DNA from: Nitrososphaerota archaeon | GTDB lineage: Archaea; Thermoproteota; Nitrososphaeria_A; Caldarchaeales; JAVZCJ01 | Direction: 5' to 3' | DNA length: 64,000 nucleotides | Assembly: GCA_038874475.1 (NCBI GenBank) | Contig: JAVZCJ010000003.1 | Coordinates: 59,463 to 123,462, forward strand | Part shown: positions 4,774-54,229 of the stretch, in pieces | Position numbering within the stretch: position 1 is the stretch's first letter | Layout: every line of letters begins with the position of its first letter | The notes under the pieces: model-generated | Seen by the model: only the letters and a program-made list of their open reading frames with translations | The model's database searches: none | Told to the model about the DNA's origin: nothing | Position numbers and translations under genes: made by a program

Positions 4774-5532
4774 TTATTTTGATGAAGCTTTCTTTTCTTC
4801 AAATGCTTTTTCTAGATATTTTTTTACTTCTTCTTGTGGCATTAATGAGTAAGTTTTTGTTTTTGTAGGAATATAAGCTATTTTAACAGTCCATTCTTCC
4901 TCGATTTTTTCAGTTGAGTATACTAATGATGATACTGCCAATTGAATAGCTTCTTCAAGCGTTAATTCTTTACTATATTTTTTCTCTAAATATTCTCTTA
5001 CTTTTTCAGCTCCTCTTCCAATGGACCATGCCAAATATTCTAGATACATTCCACTTGGATCTACAAGGAACAAGCTCGGACCTTTTTTATCAACTCCACC
5101 TATCAACAATCCTGCACCAAATGGTCTCACGCCGGCATGTTGAGTATACATTTGAGCCACGTCACCAATGTGCTTTGTGATTGCCTCAACAGCTGGATCT
5201 TCATCGTATGATAATCTTATAACTTGTGCTTGTATTCTTGCATTATCGACAAGTACTCTTGCATCCGAATTTAATCCAGAAGTAGCTGCACCTATGTGCT
5301 TATCTATTTGGAAAATTTTCCATGAAAAATTTGGATTCTGCAATTTCGTGTGTAATATTTCTTCAGCTGCCAAAACTACTCCTTCATTACAAGTAATTGC
5401 TAATGCAGTAGATCCAGACCTAACAGTCTCTAAGGCATATTCCACCTGGTAGAGACGACCTTGTGGAGAGAAAACTGTTATAGCTCTATCATAAGCCCCT
5501 GTTATTCCTAAAGCCAAATCCATCTCCTCCAT
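4774..5532 (-). CDS. psmA: proteasome subunit alpha
   Basis: The N-terminal YDRAITVFSPQGRLYQVEYA signature and the rest of the 252-aa sequence are typical of an archaeal 20S alpha subunit. Confidence 0.95.
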   Translation of the reverse strand: MEEMDLALGITGAYDRAITVFSPQGRLYQVEYALETVRSGSTALAITCNEGVVLAAEEILHTKLQNPNFSWKIFQIDKHIGAATSGLNSDARVLVDNARIQAQVIRLSYDEDPAVEAITKHIGDVAQMYTQHAGVRPFGAGLLIGGVDKKGPSLFLVDPSGMYLEYLAWSIGRGAEKVREYLEKKYSKELTLEEAIQLAVSSLVYSTEKIEEEWTVKIAYIPTKTKTYSLMPQEEVKKYLEKAFEEKKASSK

Positions 5533-5587
5533 TTATATCCTATTTTTCAATAATAATCCTTCTATTTAAAATTATATTTAAAAATTT

Positions 5588-16904: not shown

Positions 16905-18401
16905 ATGTCTAAACGTTCTATAGAATATTTTAAGAAAGCTGTCGATGAAACCCTTGGTGCTTTAAGTGCTGTAATTTCAGTAAATAAAGAAAAAAGAGGC
17001 GGACGATTCCATCTTGATGATTGTAAACCTTTTGTTGATGCTGTAAAGAAAATGAAACCAATTGATGGGCAATCTCCTGAGATTATTGCACTTCATAGAG
17101 AATCAGTTATTGCGCATTATGAAATATTAAAAGGATTAACCGATTATATTAGACCTGAAGATGACCCATTTGTTGAGCATTATCAAACTCCTCCAATTCT
17201 TGAGATCTTATACGATGAAGACCCAAAATTTAGAGATTCTGTTGAAAAATTTGTTAAAACTATTGAAAAGAATGAAGCATTTGTTGGGCAATATGTTGCT
17301 AGATGTTATGGTGGTTTTTGGGGCCCTACATGTGTAGTTGACTTTGCTTTCGTTCCTGGTAGTACAAGTAACTTTGTTAATCAAATACTTACAAAAGTTG
17401 ATATACCTGATGCTCATAAGAAAGCAATACTAGCTTCTAAATCATGGGGTATGAACACATCATATGGTATTGGTGCTGCTTTCAGAGAAGCTGTGGAAGC
17501 TGGAAAAACATTAACTGAAGCTGTTAAGGCAGAAATTGAACAATTGAAGAAAGTATATCTTACACCTACTGAAGCTCAAGCTGAGCTAATGGATAAAGCT
17601 GGTCACACTTCCTTTGATGTTAGAAAGTATATGTCTTCTTATAAGAGTAAAATTAAGCCTGTCATAAAAAAGGCAATGGATGCTGGAGTTCATTATGGTA
17701 ATCTTGTAGTAGTTCCAGCATATTGTGTTGGTGATATCGGGCATCATATTGCACAATCTTCTTATAATATGTTTAAGGATGATGTTACATTTGCAATTGC
17801 TGAAGCATCTTTCCAAGTCCTTGAAAGCACATTAAGAAAAGCTGTTTCTGAAGGTACTTTGAAAGATGAATGGCACTTAGCCAGAGTTGCTGGAGGTACC
17901 CTTGCAGCAGCTATCGAGTACATACTTGAGATGGATGGTTTTACTGCACCGATGATTATCGACTTGCTTTATAAGAGATTCTGGAGCTATAATAATATGT
18001 ATCCAAATAGAGGTGTTGCAGCAGAGTTGCATAATGTTGACTTTATGGATACGATATTCCGTGGATGGAAAATACTTTGGGAATCATATCCGAGAGGGGG
18101 GCCTAAAACTGCTGGTGTTCCTATAGACCTTACACCAATAAGGAAGCATGAAGTTTTAATGAATCCGCAGAGATATGCTTATCCAGGATGTGCAATTACT
18201 GTTAGGACGAGTTCATTATTAAGACTTGCAGACTTTCCATGCTTCTTAACAGCAGAACCAGTAACAGCTACGCTTTCAACAAATGCCATAGCATTTAGTC
18301 CAAATACGGTATTCTCACCATTACGTGCAAGAAAGAATTGTGCGGTTACATCAATGATGCCTTCAAGATGCACGTACTGCCAATGGTACAGGGCAGTATA
18401 A
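16905..18401 (+). CDS. large conserved hypothetical protein (possibly the archaeal DUF2193 family; unverified)
   Basis: Uninterrupted 498-aa ORF with non-repetitive, globular-looking sequence and visibly higher G+C than its neighbours. The C-terminal Cys motif is CAVTSMMPSRCTYC. The family suggestion rests only on size and recollection. Confidence 0.6.
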   Translation: MSKRSIEYFKKAVDETLGALSAVISVNKEKRGGRFHLDDCKPFVDAVKKMKPIDGQSPEIIALHRESVIAHYEILKGLTDYIRPEDDPFVEHYQTPPILEILYDEDPKFRDSVEKFVKTIEKNEAFVGQYVARCYGGFWGPTCVVDFAFVPGSTSNFVNQILTKVDIPDAHKKAILASKSWGMNTSYGIGAAFREAVEAGKTLTEAVKAEIEQLKKVYLTPTEAQAELMDKAGHTSFDVRKYMSSYKSKIKPVIKKAMDAGVHYGNLVVVPAYCVGDIGHHIAQSSYNMFKDDVTFAIAEASFQVLESTLRKAVSEGTLKDEWHLARVAGGTLAAAIEYILEMDGFTAPMIIDLLYKRFWSYNNMYPNRGVAAELHNVDFMDTIFRGWKILWESYPRGGPKTAGVPIDLTPIRKHEVLMNPQRYAYPGCAITVRTSSLLRLADFPCFLTAEPVTATLSTNAIAFSPNTVFSPLRARKNCAVTSMMPSRCTYCQWYRAV

Positions 18402-18430
18402 ACTCCCCTTTCTTTTTTTTGGTGATACAT

Positions 18431-19126
18431 ATGGTTAAAAGTTGGCAAAAATATCTTGCTGAACTTATTGGAACATATGCATTAGTATTTTTTGGAACAT
18501 TATCAGTAACTATATTTGCTGTTGTTTTAGGTATAACACAACCATACTATTTTGGCCCTGGTTTATTTGCTATTGGAATTACATTTGGCTTTATCGTTAT
18601 GATCATGATATATGCTCTAGGTCACATTTCTGGAACACATATAAATCCTGCAGTTACTATAAGCCTATTAGTTATAAGGAAGATGAATGTTAAAGATGCA
18701 GTAGCATATATTATAATGCAACTTATAGGCGCAGCTTTAGCTAGTTTTACTCATGCCGCCATATTACCTCAAGGTAAGGCGGTATCTTTTGGTTTGACTC
18801 TTCCAGGAGATGCCATAGGTAAAAGTGAAATTACAGCTCTTATTGTTGAAATAATCCTTACATTCTTCCTTTTACTTACAATTATGGGTGCTGCTGTTGA
18901 TAAGAGAGCCCCTCCAGGATTTGCGGGCATAATAATAGGGGCTGTTGTAGCTTCGGATATATTTGTTGGCGGACCACTTACTGGAGGATCTATGAATCCG
19001 GCTAGAACATTCGGGCCAGCAATAGCATCAGGGAATTGGACAGCACATTGGGTTTATTGGATAGGGCCAATAGCAGGTGGATTAATAGCTGCATTAATAT
19101 ATGAATATCTATTAGCCGAAAAATAA
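18431..19126 (+). CDS. aqpM: aquaporin / MIP-family channel
   Basis: Two NPA boxes (HINPAVT, SMNPART) and six helices. ATG at 18431 is preceded by GGTGAT at 18421-18426. Confidence 0.92.
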   Translation: MVKSWQKYLAELIGTYALVFFGTLSVTIFAVVLGITQPYYFGPGLFAIGITFGFIVMIMIYALGHISGTHINPAVTISLLVIRKMNVKDAVAYIIMQLIGAALASFTHAAILPQGKAVSFGLTLPGDAIGKSEITALIVEIILTFFLLLTIMGAAVDKRAPPGFAGIIIGAVVASDIFVGGPLTGGSMNPARTFGPAIASGNWTAHWVYWIGPIAGGLIAALIYEYLLAEK

Positions 19127-22663: not shown

Positions 22664-22870
22664 TATAAAGCATCGCAAATCTCTCTTATTTTAACATAAT
22701 TTTCTTTTAAGCTTAATGAATATTTATTTATTAAGGATAGTACCTGATAAATAAAATATTTAAAGTCTGTAATTTTCTTTTTTTATTAGGATAAAGCAAA
22801 CTTAATCTCTATTTATTTTAAATATGAACTCACCTCCAAACTATTTAAATCTTTGTAGAGATTTTTTCTT

Positions 22871-23034
22871 ATGGAGTTCCATGAGATTTCTGATGAAGAG
22901 TGGTCTTTAATTGAACTTTTTTTACTCCAAAAGCTAAGGTTGGCAGGCCTAGAGCTAATGATAGACTTATCATTAATGGAATCCTTTATGTCTTGACTAC
23001 TAGATGGATATGGAATATTAAAGAAAATCAATAA
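22871..23034 (+). pseudogene. IS5-family (DUF4096-type N-terminus) transposase fragment, frameshifted
   Basis: MEFHEISDEEWSLIELF is followed, in another frame after a T7 run (22917-22923), by PKAKVGRPRANDRLIINGILYVLTTRWIW. This reproduces the conserved L(T/S)DE(Q/E)W..IEPLLP....GRPR.DDR...NGILYVLRTG N-terminus. There is a stop at 23032-23034 and no DDE domain follows. Confidence 0.55.
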
Positions 23035-23042
23035 AACTAATA

Positions 23043-23661
23043 AAAGCAAGATTTTTACAAGGAATTAAAAGCCATCAATTTCAAGAAATTGTAAAACAAA
23101 AATTACAAGAAATTCATGGAAATTCAGTAAAGCAATGAACTTTTTCAAAGAATAAATGCGAGAATAAGAAGACAAAACAAAGATTGGATAGAGAAAACTT
23201 CAAAGAAGCTTATTGATATTGCATTAGAAAGTATTGAAAAATACAATTGTAATGTTGCGATAGTTTCTTTTGAAGATCTTAAAGAATATAAAGCTGGAAA
23301 TAATAGCAAGAAAACAAACAAGAAAAATGCTGAATGGTTAAGGAAAATAATTCAAAGAACATTTGAAAAATCTTTGTGGAATTATCCTACAAAGGTATTA
23401 ACTTATTTGCCAACATTCAATAAAAATCAAAGAAATATAAAACAAATCTTAGTTAATGCTGACTATACTTCAAGAATATACAGTAAATGTGGAAATGAAG
23501 GAAAATTAATAAAATATATAGCAAAAGGAAAAATAAAGAGATACTTTAAATGCAATAATTGTGGATATAAAGACGATAAACATTTCAATGCTTCAAGCAA
23601 TATTGCAAAAAGAGCAATTGAATATCTTAAAAAGGTTGCTTTTCCCGAACCCATGTGCTAA
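23043..23661 (+). pseudogene. tnpB: IS200/IS605-type tnpB remnant (C-terminal RuvC/zinc-ribbon half only, frameshifted)
   Basis: The two frames read ...KQKLQEIHGNSVKQ* then NELFQRINARIRRQNKDWIEKTSKKLIDIALESIEKYNCNVAIVSFEDL...NADYTSRIYSKCGNEG...FKCNNCGYKDDKHFNASSNIAKRA. The RuvC-II E, the YTS motif, the CxxC..CxxC ribbon and the NA..NIA motif are recognisable. The N-terminal ~200 aa (including the RuvC-I Asp) are missing. Confidence 0.7.
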
Positions 23662-23671
23662 GGGAAAGGCA

Positions 23672-23910
23672 GCCAGAACCAAGCTTCCTATTTAATAGGA
23701 AAACAGCATTCTGCTAAGGAAAGGAAGGCCTCCCCCTGAAGCAGAAGCCTCGAGCTAATTTTCAACAAATTAGCAATGAAAGGGGTTAAACAGTTTAAAA
23801 CTGCTCTGCTGTTGTCTCCCAAGGGGAGGAGAAGCCATCTATGTTCTTTCAACAAGAGTATAGGTGGCTTCCAGAGAGGAGAGGCTAAACTATGGTAGGA
23901 AGATTCTGGC
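23672..23910 (+). ncRNA. GC-rich, highly structured RNA candidate immediately 3' of the tnpB remnant (omega-RNA/reRNA-like position)
   Basis: A closing helix joins 23672-23678 to 23904-23910 and 23684-23688 to 23898-23902. There is an 8-bp hairpin at 23754-23774 and an 18-bp hairpin at 23831-23871. Both hairpin loops are UCAAC. The G-U pairs are only valid on the + strand. G+C is far above the surrounding spacer. Confidence 0.55.
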
Positions 23911-23982
23911 AATAAACTTAAATTACTGCAATTTTTGAAATTTTTAAAAGAAAACACTATAAACTGAGAATTTAATTTTTAA

Positions 23983-24399
23983 TTAGAGTTTTCTAGGATC
24001 TATTCTTATTAATCCCGGTATAGTATCATATACATCATCTGTTGAGATTATTTTATGATCTTCAACTTGATTTAAAGCGGTAGCAGCATAATATGCATCA
24101 AATATTGATTTTAAATTGTATTGTCTCATTAATGTTAAAGCTAAAAGGTCTATTTCATATGTTGTTTCTAAGAATTTCAAATTTTCTATAGCTGTTATCG
24201 ATGCAGCTCTAGCAATGTACTCATCTAAGCTAACTCCCTCTTCCTTTGAAATATAATAAAGTTCATGTAAACACTCTCTTGAGGTATAAACTATTCCAAA
24301 TTCTCCTACAACAATTCTTTTTATAATATTCTCAGCAGTAGCTTTTAACCAATCTTCTTTTTTAATAAATGCATATAGTATATCTGTTTCAATCATCAA
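23983..24399 (-). CDS. vapC: PIN-domain ribonuclease toxin VapC
   Basis: 138 aa with acidic PIN residues (IETDIL, ..HELYY.., IFDAYYAATAL, ISTDD). It overlaps the upstream antitoxin gene by 11 nt. Confidence 0.85.
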   Translation of the reverse strand: MMIETDILYAFIKKEDWLKATAENIIKRIVVGEFGIVYTSRECLHELYYISKEEGVSLDEYIARAASITAIENLKFLETTYEIDLLALTLMRQYNLKSIFDAYYAATALNQVEDHKIISTDDVYDTIPGLIRIDPRKL

Positions 24400-24643
24400 T
24401 TTGTTTTCTTCTCCTTGCTCTTTTTATAGCATCTTCTGATGCTAATTTCTCAGCTAATTCCTTTAACTCTTTTCTTTCATGTTTTGATGAAAGCCAAGAA
24501 CTTGCATATTCATGCGGCTTTACCGGTAATGGAATTGTAATGAAGAATGTTCCAGCTGGTATGATTACTGCTTTTCCTCCTCCAACACTTATTTCTTTTG
24601 GAATAGTTATTCTTCTTCTCTCATCGATCTTAACTATAGCCAT
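24389..24643 (-). CDS. vapB: AbrB/SpoVT-type antitoxin VapB
   Basis: MAIVKIDERRRITIPKEI is a swapped-hairpin AbrB-type N-terminus. 84 aa, directly upstream of vapC. Confidence 0.8.
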   Translation of the reverse strand: MAIVKIDERRRITIPKEISVGGGKAVIIPAGTFFITIPLPVKPHEYASSWLSSKHERKELKELAEKLASEDAIKRARRRKQIDD

Positions 24644-52864: not shown

Positions 52865-54229
52865 ATGAAAAAAGGAGTACTTATTTCAGTTGCTGTAGTA
52901 ATTATCATAATAGCCATTTTAACAGCATATATCTTTTGGCCTCGTGTTGAAAAACCAAAAACAGAAGTTCAATATCCTGATGAAGTATATGAGTGGGCAA
53001 GGAAAATTAAAGAAAAATATGATGGTACAACACTTACTATTGCAGCTGTAGCTCATCCATCAACTGAAGCATTTAAGGTTCTAACGCCAGATTTTGAGTC
53101 ATTAACAGGCATAAAAGTCAAGTGGGTTGTTTATGAGGAAATAAGTTATTTTGATAAGATAATGCTAATAGTCACAGGTGAAGAAGTCCCATATGATTTA
53201 ATGTATACTTGTGCTGAAATAATACCAGGTTTTGCTAGAGAAGGATTGGTTATTCCAATAGATGATTATTTAGCAAATAAGGAATTAACTCCCGAATGGT
53301 TTGTTTTTAATGATCTTATACCGGCTTATGTTAATTATATGAAAGCTGATGAAAAACTTTATGGTATACCATTTGCGGGTGAAACAATTTTTGTAGCGTA
53401 TAGGAGCGACCTATTTGCAAAATATAATAAAGAGCCACCTAAAAACTGTGAGGAACTTCTTGAACTTGCAAAATTTTTCCATAAAAGAGAAGAAGGGCTT
53501 TACGGTGTATCAATTCGATGTGCTAAATCTTGGGAAGCTGCATGGAGTTTAATTTCATTCACATATGGTTTTGGTGGTAAATGGGTTGATTTGGAAACAT
53601 TAACCCCCAAATTTACATCTCCTGAAACAATTAATTCATTAAAGTATTTTGTTGAATTAACTAAATGCGGTCCACCAGGTATTGAAGCCTTCTCTTTTGA
53701 AGAAGCTTGGTCAGCATTTCAAACAGGAAAAGTAGCTATATTAGTAGAATCTACAGCAGCAGCTCCAGGTATAGAAGACCCTACAAAATCTTTAGTTGCA
53801 GGCAAAGTGGGATATGCTAAATTCCCTAAAGGACCTGCTGGAGAAGCTGCAGGAGTTTGGGGATGGGGACTTAGCATACCAAAGGGTGCACCAAAAGAAA
53901 AAAGAGAAGCTGCATGGAGTTTAATAGTATGGTTAACAAGTGAATTAAATGTAGATAGATATCTTGAAAATGGTGGAATAGTTACAAGGCTTTCGCCTTT
54001 AAAAAAGATGAAAAATCCTTATGATAAAGCTATTCTTGATACTCTTGAGGCTGCAAATTCTCCCTTATCTCAAGAATTACTCAAAGCATATACTTTGCCT
54101 ATTTCATTTGAAATGACTGGAATAGTTTCTGAATTAACATCACTTGCTATAACTGGAGAATTAACTCCTGAAGTAGCATGTGAAAAAATGCAAATTGCTA
54201 TAGAAGAATTATTAAAACCATATAAGTAA
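52865..54229 (+). CDS. ABC transporter sugar-binding protein (CUT1-type family 1 SBP)
   Basis: N-terminal anchor helix, 454 aa, with the typical family-1 SBP pattern. It is followed by two permease genes. Confidence 0.8.
   Translation: MKKGVLISVAVVIIIIAILTAYIFWPRVEKPKTEVQYPDEVYEWARKIKEKYDGTTLTIAAVAHPSTEAFKVLTPDFESLTGIKVKWVVYEEISYFDKIMLIVTGEEVPYDLMYTCAEIIPGFAREGLVIPIDDYLANKELTPEWFVFNDLIPAYVNYMKADEKLYGIPFAGETIFVAYRSDLFAKYNKEPPKNCEELLELAKFFHKREEGLYGVSIRCAKSWEAAWSLISFTYGFGGKWVDLETLTPKFTSPETINSLKYFVELTKCGPPGIEAFSFEEAWSAFQTGKVAILVESTAAAPGIEDPTKSLVAGKVGYAKFPKGPAGEAAGVWGWGLSIPKGAPKEKREAAWSLIVWLTSELNVDRYLENGGIVTRLSPLKKMKNPYDKAILDTLEAANSPLSQELLKAYTLPISFEMTGIVSELTSLAITGELTPEVACEKMQIAIEELLKPYK

Follow-up and report, generated by a model that had tools for sequence, protein, structure and literature searches.

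A 64,000-nt stretch of the genome of a Nitrososphaerota archaeon (assembly GCA_038874475.1, contig JAVZCJ010000003.1, positions 59,463 to 123,462 of the forward strand; from here: the window, numbered from its first letter) carries a GC-rich, extensively base-paired element at the 3′ end of a decayed tnpB gene. We report that this element, located at 23637-23912 on the + strand, is very probably the omega-RNA scaffold, also termed right-end element RNA (reRNA), of an undescribed family of archaeal TnpB proteins, and that the copy in the window is most likely a recent relic. Omega RNAs as such are a known kind of RNA; the family, the structure model, and a closing helix that exists in two versions and whose pairing is linked to the integrity of tnpB are undescribed in the libraries that we searched. 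The host element is a small, multi-copy insertion element of AT-rich archaea that carries tnpB only and resides in metagenome-assembled genomes (MAGs) labelled Nitrososphaerota.

The position of omega RNAs relative to tnpB (PMC10278001, PMC10691335), their processing from the tnpB mRNA (PMC10278001) and their function (PMC10055086, PMC10691335) have been described for other systems. An omega RNA of the insertion sequence (IS) IS200/IS605 type on the + strand, beside a dead tnpB, had been the leading idea of an earlier reading made by a model from the letters of the window (from here: the first-pass annotation). The linkage to tnpB in related loci, the covariation of the helices and a sharp boundary between scaffold and flanking DNA bear this idea out.

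Results

A non-coding GC-rich island

The GC content of the window is 27.3% overall, compared with 45% for 23700-23899 and up to 50% for 120-nt windows within 23611-23934, which confirms the GC-rich island that had been noticed amid A/T-rich spacers. Three other GC islands (5005-5537, 17788-19120 and 53661-53955) each lie within long open reading frames (ORFs), and the island at 23637-23912 is the sole non-coding one of the 64 kb. The + strand of 23640-23930 folded with a minimum free energy (MFE) of −95.4 kcal/mol, compared with −77.1 ± 5.7 kcal/mol for 200 dinucleotide-shuffled versions (z = −3.2), none of which was as stable (0/200). Since the − strand of the same segment was equally foldable (z = −3.6), the folding energy shows structure and does not choose the strand.

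Rfam 15 gave no match at the curated gathering thresholds anywhere in the window, and hence no re-assignment of the element to RNase P RNA, signal recognition particle (SRP) RNA or another known family. At E values up to 10, the segment 23300-24200 yielded chance-level matches only, all of them outside 23637-23912. Across 20 related loci (116 kb; loci of the comparison are given L numbers), the sole Rfam match was a tRNA gene (57 bits) at L008:2010-2104, ~230 nt upstream of the tnpB start. Neither tRNA and tmRNA genes nor CRISPR-like arrays were found in the window, and self-BLAST, nhmmer and tblastn detected no second copy of the RNA or of tnpB in these 64 kb.

Linkage to tnpB in related loci

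Searching with the tnpB remnant of the window returned 51 close protein relatives, while a full-length member of the family as query returned 177 relative clusters at E values up to 0.001. The best 120 of these 177 were all at least 60% identical to the query and represent a tight, separate cluster. Metagenomes are one source of these relatives, and MAGs bearing the labels Nitrososphaerota, Nitrososphaeria or Aenigmatarchaeota are the other. For comparison, 75 related loci were taken; of those in the RNA alignment, about 31 retain an intact ORF, with the others decayed to various degrees. In 70 of these 75 loci, blastn with 23630-23940 found the element, at ~69-75% identity, directly 3′ of a tnpB homologue and in the same orientation, and all six further loci with an intact tnpB that were obtained by protein look-ups (L076-L079, L082, L083) carry it as well. 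Copies of the ~275-nt element that are located 3′ of an intact tnpB, as looked for on the basis of the first-pass annotation, therefore exist.

Five loci contain a second, mostly partial match (L008:21-176, L015:984-1209, L022:389-487, L044:2183-2282 and L069:19-171), and two copies each are present on the contigs Ga0080004_1121795, Ga0209225_1000247 and Ga0080004_1145929. The element is thus a multi-copy one that occupies many insertion sites, with exchanges of flanks between genomes. L077/L079 on the one hand and L078 on the other, from closely related MAGs, have one and the same element between flanks that differ on the left and on the right. No cas genes were among the listed neighbours, which are housekeeping genes. 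An empty site was sought via the two proteins neighbouring the element in the window; one is not on record and the other led to the same arrangement or to a contig breaking at the element. The RNA core was found neither in IMG/VR viral contigs nor in plasmids, and the TnpB protein matches in phages were weak, covered the C-terminal third (query residues 266-398) and belonged to IS605 OrfB genes.

Helix model of the element

Helices were defined on the window sequence (index 1 = window 23630) and were then counted across the family with controls. According to this model, the RNA would fold into ten helices, all on the + strand, comprising a 5′ hairpin (P0), two long-range helices (P1, P2) and an interior divided into the domains P3-P7 and P8-P9. 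P0 (index 8-17 / 33-42; 23637-23671; TGCTTTTCCC / GGGAAAGGCA) constitutes the 5′ end of the RNA and holds the tnpB stop codon (23659-61) in its loop. Because this hairpin spans the stop codon, the RNA overlaps the 3′ end of the tnpB ORF, an arrangement that recurs in the 70 of 75 loci and in the six further ones. The first-pass annotation had let the element begin at the stop codon; the link to tnpB stands, and the start lies ~35 nt earlier, at ~23637. P0 occurs in at least 12 sequence versions, all of which pair, for instance CCTTTCCC/GGGGAAGG, TAGCCTCTTC/GGAGAGGCTA and CCTTCCAGA/TCTGGAGGG besides TGCTTTTCCC/GGGAAAGGCA of the window.

The closing helix P1 (index 43-49 / 275-281; 23672-78 / 23904-10) joins GCCAGAA to TTCTGGC with seven of seven pairs. 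It is followed by P2 (index 55-63 / 265-273; 23684-92 / 23894-902; 5′ strand CTTCCTATT), which includes the pairing of CTTCC (23684-88) with GGAAG (23898-902). P3 (index 74-79 / 178-183; 23703-08 / 23807-12) encloses P4 (index 80-86 / 111-117; 23709-15 / 23740-46), P5 (index 118-122 / 153-157; 23747-51 / 23782-86), P6 and P7. P6 is the 8-bp hairpin GCTAATTT-TCAAC-AAATTAGC at 23754-74 (index 125-132 / 138-145; 23754-61 / 23767-74). P7 (index 159-165 / 171-177) is paired in the window copy at 23791-94 / 23800-03, with two mismatches among its outer three base pairs. P8 (index 185-189 / 252-256; 23814-18 / 23881-85) encloses an invariant segment of the AUGGGAGGA type together with P9, the 18-bp hairpin at 23831-23871 (index 202-219 / 225-242) with the loop UCAAC. 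The right end of the element (23894-23912) consists of the 3′ strand of P2, a 1-nt linker, the 3′ strand TTCTGGC of P1 and a final AA. Single-sequence MFE folds contained P1 in 54 of 61 cases and the long-range P2 in 59 of 61.

The helices that the first-pass annotation had read off the window, namely the P1 and P2 pairings and the two hairpins, were all correctly placed. The loop context that it saw in both hairpins proved to be a feature of the family, with UUCAAC kept in both loops across the main subtype. The pair of near-identical direct repeats at 23657-74 and 23713-30 is present in the window; the repeats are not kept in relatives and are probably incidental. In the lineage of the window and L083, three more pairs (GGT/GCC) can be added to P0 at 23634-23674, at the expense of bases 1-3 of the P1 5′ strand. 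The MFE structure of 23630-23915 prefers this extended P0 over P1, and the extension is absent in one other subtype that was compared by eye.

Covariation and strand

Pairing was evaluated on alignment A2, an unfitted MAFFT alignment of 62 sequences (59 distinct), in which 65 pairs in P2-P9 were tested, corresponding to 3676 cells. MAFFT mis-registered P0 and P1, and both were analysed directly, without the alignment. When RNAalifold was run on the raw MAFFT alignment, P2, P7, P8 and P9 alone were recovered, because the variable helices and the 3′ strand of P1 are mis-registered in it. Over P2-P9, standard pairs made up 94.0% of the cells, compared with 35-55% if the 3′ partners were slid by 1-3 columns. 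Compensatory changes in relatives were clearly present, with 29 pairs altered on both sides as opposed to 6-12 in the slid versions, and in 500 partner shuffles the observed value was never reached on any of five measures. Changes on both sides affect 12 of the 18 pairs of P9 and six of the seven of P4, and P9 of the window copy possesses several unique compensated pairs. P2 is paired in 98.7% of the cells and shows one-sided U-G/C-G/U-A changes only, while in P8, paired in 99%, C variants were matched by G in four of five instances.

G·U cells outnumber A·C cells across the family by 451 to 41 (11:1), an excess that argues for selection on a + strand RNA rather than on DNA. The same argument had been raised by the first-pass annotation from the three G·U pairs of the 18-bp hairpin (T209-G235, G214-T230 and T215-G229 in index numbering); these pairs are indeed present, and the reasoning that the + strand is the transcribed one holds family-wide.

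Two versions of the closing helix

P1 exists in two versions, GCCAGAR/TTCTGGC and GGCGTGG/ACACGCC, which differ at four of the seven positions per strand and switch on both strands together. Single compensated variants occur too, such as GGTGTG/CACACC in L058. With P1 states assigned by alignment columns, at least six of the seven pairs were formed in every locus whose tnpB ORF reaches 385 aa or more (31 of 31). Among 25 decayed copies, eight had five pairs or fewer (Fisher p = 0.0008 vs intact) and 17 keep P1; the damaged copies include clear chimeras of both versions (L045, L062 and L049). The window copy has a perfect P1 (7/7). Either version is found with each left-end type and each P0 type, and the copies are therefore mosaics. 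A flipped P9 tip, with the loop GUUGAA in place of UUCAAC, was seen only in L057, L059, L062 and L075 (A2 columns 292-303), all of which have a decayed tnpB.

Right end and predicted guide

The information content of the downstream flanks was measured after anchoring on the 3′ strand of P1. Conservation had fallen to background by +3/+4 both in the class-A flanks, which follow TTCTGGC and keep the AA (n = 19), and in the class-B flanks, which follow ACACGCC (n = 35). The 54 flanks all differ, and conservation ends 0-3 nt past P1. This drop places the right end in the window at ~23912. The host DNA that follows on the + strand (23913-23932, TAAACTTAAATTACTGCAAT, then T5 at 23932-36) would, judging from the position of the boundary, provide the predicted guide over ~16-20 nt past 23912, a length taken from published TnpB systems. 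The same flank follows the intact element in L083.

The tnpB remnant and the fate of the window copy

The tnpB remnant (23004-23661, + strand) comprises about the C-terminal 220 codons and matches Pfam PF07282 (Cas12f1-like TNB zinc ribbon) at 2e-10. DNA homology to all loci of the family begins exactly at 23004. The remnant is devoid of approximately the first 180 TnpB residues, including the RuvC-I Asp, and contains two frameshifts at ~23030 and ~23133, as recognized by frame analysis and from tblastn pieces in two frames. The last 175 codons (23137-23661) are still open, and the remnant is 73% identical to proteins of the family. The description of this tnpB as 5′-truncated and frameshifted on the same strand as the element was thus accurate. 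Since the whole element is identical in a second, independent assembly (GCA_044343265.1, locus L081), the lesions are not assembly errors of one record.

A close relative is L083 (GCA_038870775.1), in which an intact 392-aa tnpB (protein P0144) precedes an RNA that ends in the same ATTCTGGCAA. The following 103 nt in L083 are 100% identical to 23913-24015 of the window, while the left flank differs. Given the intact element of L083 at this junction, the window copy descends from such an element. Identity between the two is 98.7% for the 5′ part of the RNA (23637-23715), 76.5% for its middle (23716-23880) and 93.9% for its 3′ end (23881-23912), and 82-90% for tnpB (23107-23636). This mosaic interior, together with the exchanged flanks, indicates that copies have probably recombined or undergone gene conversion with one another and that the genome has been rearranged where they lie. 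Out of 117 near-invariant columns, the RNA of the window differs at 17, some of these differences being compensated pairs or an alignment shift, and with −103.4 kcal/mol it is 19 kcal/mol less stable than the RNA of L083 (−122.5 kcal/mol). One truncation and two frameshifts, together with the weaker fold, the mismatches in P7 and the junction in L083, fit a recent inactivation, and the window copy is most likely recent debris.

A fragment of an IS4/IS5-family transposase lies upstream on the + strand (22811-22988) and ends 16 nt before the tnpB homology starts. It represents the N-terminal DUF4096 part, is frameshifted, and matches Pfam PF13340 at 2e-10 on the reconstructed peptide; on the DNA level it shows 74% similarity to copies in L002 and L035. 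An element of this family recurs in or beside tnpB copies, at 22811-22988 in the window, L002:1222-1405 and L035:415-543, and in protein P0060, represented by 12 member sequences, an IS5 DDE fragment has been fused in frame to TnpB from about residue 43. Downstream of the element, a PIN-domain gene with a small overlapping upstream ORF (84 aa) occupies 23983-24643 on the − strand. The 84-aa product has no Pfam family on record, and the pair is arranged like a toxin-antitoxin system of the VapBC type. Its position on the opposite strand and downstream differs from the arrangement in which a ribbon-helix-helix (RHH) or MazE gene is located upstream of tnpB (PMC10691335).

The partner protein

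Full-length proteins of the family have ~390-405 aa. Pfam recognizes only the TNB domain PF07282 in them. The best NCBIfam profile was Cas12f2/Cas14b NF049972 (1e-9), sub-threshold with 37 bits vs a cutoff of 450, and a sequence search of the PDB gave weak Cas12f matches (0.017). An AlphaFold2 model based on 30 family members was of moderate confidence (predicted local distance difference test, pLDDT, 70; predicted template modelling score, pTM, 0.62). Foldseek with this model found AsCas12f 8dzj (E = 8e-12, template modelling score ~0.43) followed by many Cas12 structures, and among TnpB structures ISFba1 8iaz (5e-7) and ISDra2 8h1j (2e-6) and 8exa (9e-5). The partner protein, as modelled, has the TnpB/Cas12f fold.

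D170, E272 and the four cysteines of the zinc ribbon are invariant. An invariant His376 occupies the position aligned with the Asp of NADYN in RuvC-III of AsCas12f 7wju, an Asp taken to be catalytic in line with a motif description (PMC10691335). Across the family, the active site accordingly reads Asp-Glu-His instead of the canonical RuvC triad Asp-Glu-Asp. The corresponding His codon of the window, CAT at 23587-23589 within ...KDDKHFNAS..., equals H376 of protein P0052. A RuvC-III Asp-to-His exchange has already been described in several TnpB branches whose continued activity is regarded as probable (PMC10691335). The exchange is therefore notable and not new; what it weakens is the idea of a typical TnpB, not the membership in the TnpB family. 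In the RIIIr TnpB groups (Altae-Tran et al. 2023, PMC10691335), the Asp of NADxN is likewise replaced by His and the His is conserved across the branch, and some of these branches are nearly exclusive to archaea (PMC10691335). The largest published branch with this exchange, RIIIr-4, is without the C4 zinc finger, whereas the present family keeps a C4 zinc ribbon; moreover, the arrangement with RHH/MazE upstream that was reported in the same study (PMC10691335) was not seen here.

Left ends of the element

Type A and type C left ends had no significant complementarity to the RNA. Type B is represented by L020:1640-2332 and was also seen in L004, L013, L017, L021, L025, L031, L037, L048 and L056. 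These loci have a conserved, GC-rich, ORF-free region of ~700 nt upstream of tnpB with many covarying hairpins, whose left boundary is at the hairpin CCTAAAGRRGCTWAACCTTTAGG. The region (L020:1600-2340) had no Rfam match even at E values up to 1. It contains a CAGAGACUAAACGG motif that recalls the R element of group I introns; the topology does not fit.

Each of the 15 type B/B2 loci carries, ~160 nt before its tnpB gene begins (L020:2176-2206), the sequence AGTTTAGCCCC-TTTCTGGAA-AA-TCCTCCCAT. It is the reverse complement of the omega-RNA core flanking P9, ATGGGAGGA [P9] TTCCAGAAAG(AG)GGGCTAAACT. The 5′ region and the 3′ RNA of these loci hence share ~29 nt of complementarity, equivalent to a subterminal inverted repeat, which the left-end types A and C do not have.

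Discussion

By analogy with characterized TnpB systems, the 3′ end of the tnpB transcript would, in intact copies, give rise to the RNA, which would be cut out and bound by the ~400-aa TnpB. The ~16-20 nt of host DNA past the right end would then guide cleavage of a matching empty site beside a transposon-adjacent motif (TAM), and the element could be copied back into the cut site by recombination. Transcription, processing, protein binding and guided cleavage are thus predicted for the present family from its resemblance to these systems.

The closest parallels are the reRNAs of ISDra2 from Deinococcus radiodurans (8exa, 8h1j) and of ISFba1 (8iaz), which are ~200-250 nt long, lie on the tnpB strand, overlap the end of the ORF and extend to the right end. 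Shared with them are a long-range helix that holds the guide-adjacent segment, the use of the flanking DNA as (here predicted) guide and the same protein fold (Foldseek E 2e-6 to 5e-7). The present family differs by the lack of detected sequence similarity, a protein identity of 11-14% in the structural alignment, the RuvC-III His and its tnpB-only copies. The P0-P9 layout was derived from the present family and is set beside the ISDra2 and ISFba1 RNAs by general arrangement, not base by base. Cas12f (AsCas12f 8dzj/8j12; Cas12f2/Cas14b NF049972) is the best structural and sequence-profile match of the protein, and the P1/P2 stack beside the guide may be a positional analogue of the repeat:anti-repeat duplex of Cas12f. 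Unlike the Cas12f pair of trans-activating CRISPR RNA (tracrRNA) and CRISPR RNA, the present RNA is a single contiguous molecule, it belongs to mobile multi-copy elements, and the window has no array. An identity of the element with a Cas12f tracrRNA was rejected, since there is no array in the window and the 54 flanks are unrelated, though no direct search for repeats was made in the related loci. TnpBs of Sulfolobus islandicus, which are likened here by description, provide an archaeal and thermophilic example with a 3′ omega RNA and RNA-guided nuclease activity; they are assigned to the IS200/IS605 type and reported as active nucleases (PMC11043419, PMC11579290). In their RuvC site they would be expected to differ from the Asp-Glu-His of the present family.

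Several observations weigh against the assignment as an omega RNA of a functional TnpB family. No curated omega-RNA model matched, and the element has no Rfam 15 match at any threshold. Neither tnpA nor other genes were found upstream of tnpB in the upstream regions and neighbourhoods of ~10 copies. The upstream alignments contain at least three mosaic left-end types without a clean boundary, and no TAM was derived from them. Nuclease activity with His in place of the RuvC-III Asp is, judged from the residues, not guaranteed. Among the controls of the covariation analysis, the partner shuffle ignores relatedness, so that the sliding control and the contrast between intact and decayed copies are the stronger ones. 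Finally, P2 and P8 vary little and each has an alternative as a local hairpin. For P8, the local version (23815-20 / 23824-29) is nearly as good as the long-range one; thin evidence for the latter comes from the C variants, which find a G partner in the long-range helix and would disrupt the local hairpin. For P2, the columns of the local stem give no valid count, being displaced by a 1-nt insertion in the window copy; the long-range P2 is favoured by seven copies (L009, L016, L044, L047, L062, L063 and L064) in which the local stem has changed without compensation.

With regard to the fate of the window copy, the first-pass annotation had offered recent debris, use in trans and a domesticated or novel non-coding RNA. 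Recent debris is best supported, by the junction in L083 and the few lesions. The orphan RNA might instead still be in service: it would be transcribed, e.g. by read-through from the upstream ABC-transporter genes, which share the + strand, and TnpB from intact copies elsewhere in the genome would load it in trans, so that homing could go on maintaining a remnant that has no nuclease of its own. Such a use would agree with the full pairing of P1, P2, P6 and P9 in the window copy despite the dead tnpB, with several copies per contig in related genomes, with P1 being kept in 17 of the 25 decayed copies, and with intact TnpBs of that RNA subtype in close relatives (L077-L079, L083). We nevertheless consider it unlikely, as the 64 kb hold one remnant and one RNA copy and no intact copy was placed in the genome assembly of the window, as the RNA has 17 of 117 deviating columns, two mismatches in P7 and a fold weaker by 19 kcal/mol than that of L083, and as an intact structure is equally expected from the recency of the inactivation alone. 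Going one step further, orphans might be guide-only parasites of the TnpB system, with the P1 versions acting as a built-in check that leaves mismatched recombinant RNAs dead. The check is suggested by the versions being kept matched in every functional-looking copy despite visible recombination, and the proposal as a whole is rather doubtful. A domesticated or otherwise independent non-coding RNA, such as RNase P RNA, SRP RNA or a new regulatory RNA, that merely happens to lie beside a tnpB remnant found no support. A GC-rich island in an AT-rich genome with a structure kept next to a dead gene would suit it; the lack of any Rfam match, the attachment of nearly every copy to tnpB or a remnant of it, the many unrelated sites with several copies per contig and the intact element at the same junction in L083 leave it scarcely credible.

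Two further explanations concern the nature of the conserved block. It could be the right end of the element acting as folded single-stranded DNA for a transposase, rather than an RNA. The ends of IS200/IS605 elements are known to use DNA hairpins (PMC6006769), the block does form the right end of a mobile element, its most invariant sequence lies in the last ~60 nt, and the left side of type B carries the reverse complement of this sequence. The 11:1 excess of G·U over A·C fits RNA and not DNA, ten helices over 275 nt with 7-9-bp helices spanning 230 nt go far beyond known transposase-binding ends, and no transposase gene was found nearby in the copies examined, which together make a purely DNA-level role highly improbable; the last bases of the element may have a dual role, as DNA and as RNA. 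Alternatively, the block could be the 3′ part of a self-splicing intron-transposon chimera similar to the bacterial IStrons, which combine group I introns with TnpB and omega RNA (10.1101/2023.11.20.567912, PMC4227781). The ~700-nt structured region of type B with its CAGAGACUAAACGG motif resembling the group I R element would be in line with this. Yet that region had no group I or group II match in Rfam at E values up to 1, its helix topology is unlike that of group I introns, the 3′ strand of the candidate P7 is engaged in a strong local helix, types A and C are without the region and the window copy has lost its 5′ part, so that an IStron-like origin has very little probability. An omega-RNA scaffold, orphaned by the decay of its tnpB in the window copy, appears as by far the most plausible identity of the element.

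Conclusions

The analysis yields a comparative structure model, with ten helices, a guide boundary and a strand, for the presumed guide RNA of a compact and divergent family of archaeal TnpBs. Rfam does not contain this family, and Pfam labels only its zinc-ribbon domain. For the annotation of such genomes, it means that the sole non-coding GC island of the window is very probably a transposon RNA and not a housekeeping RNA. The pair of an intact and a decayed copy at one and the same junction makes it possible to address how fast a guide RNA decays after the loss of its nuclease and whether orphan guides are used in trans. Moreover, the model is a basis for testing the family as small RNA-guided nucleases, including whether cutting may proceed with an Asp-Glu-His active site.

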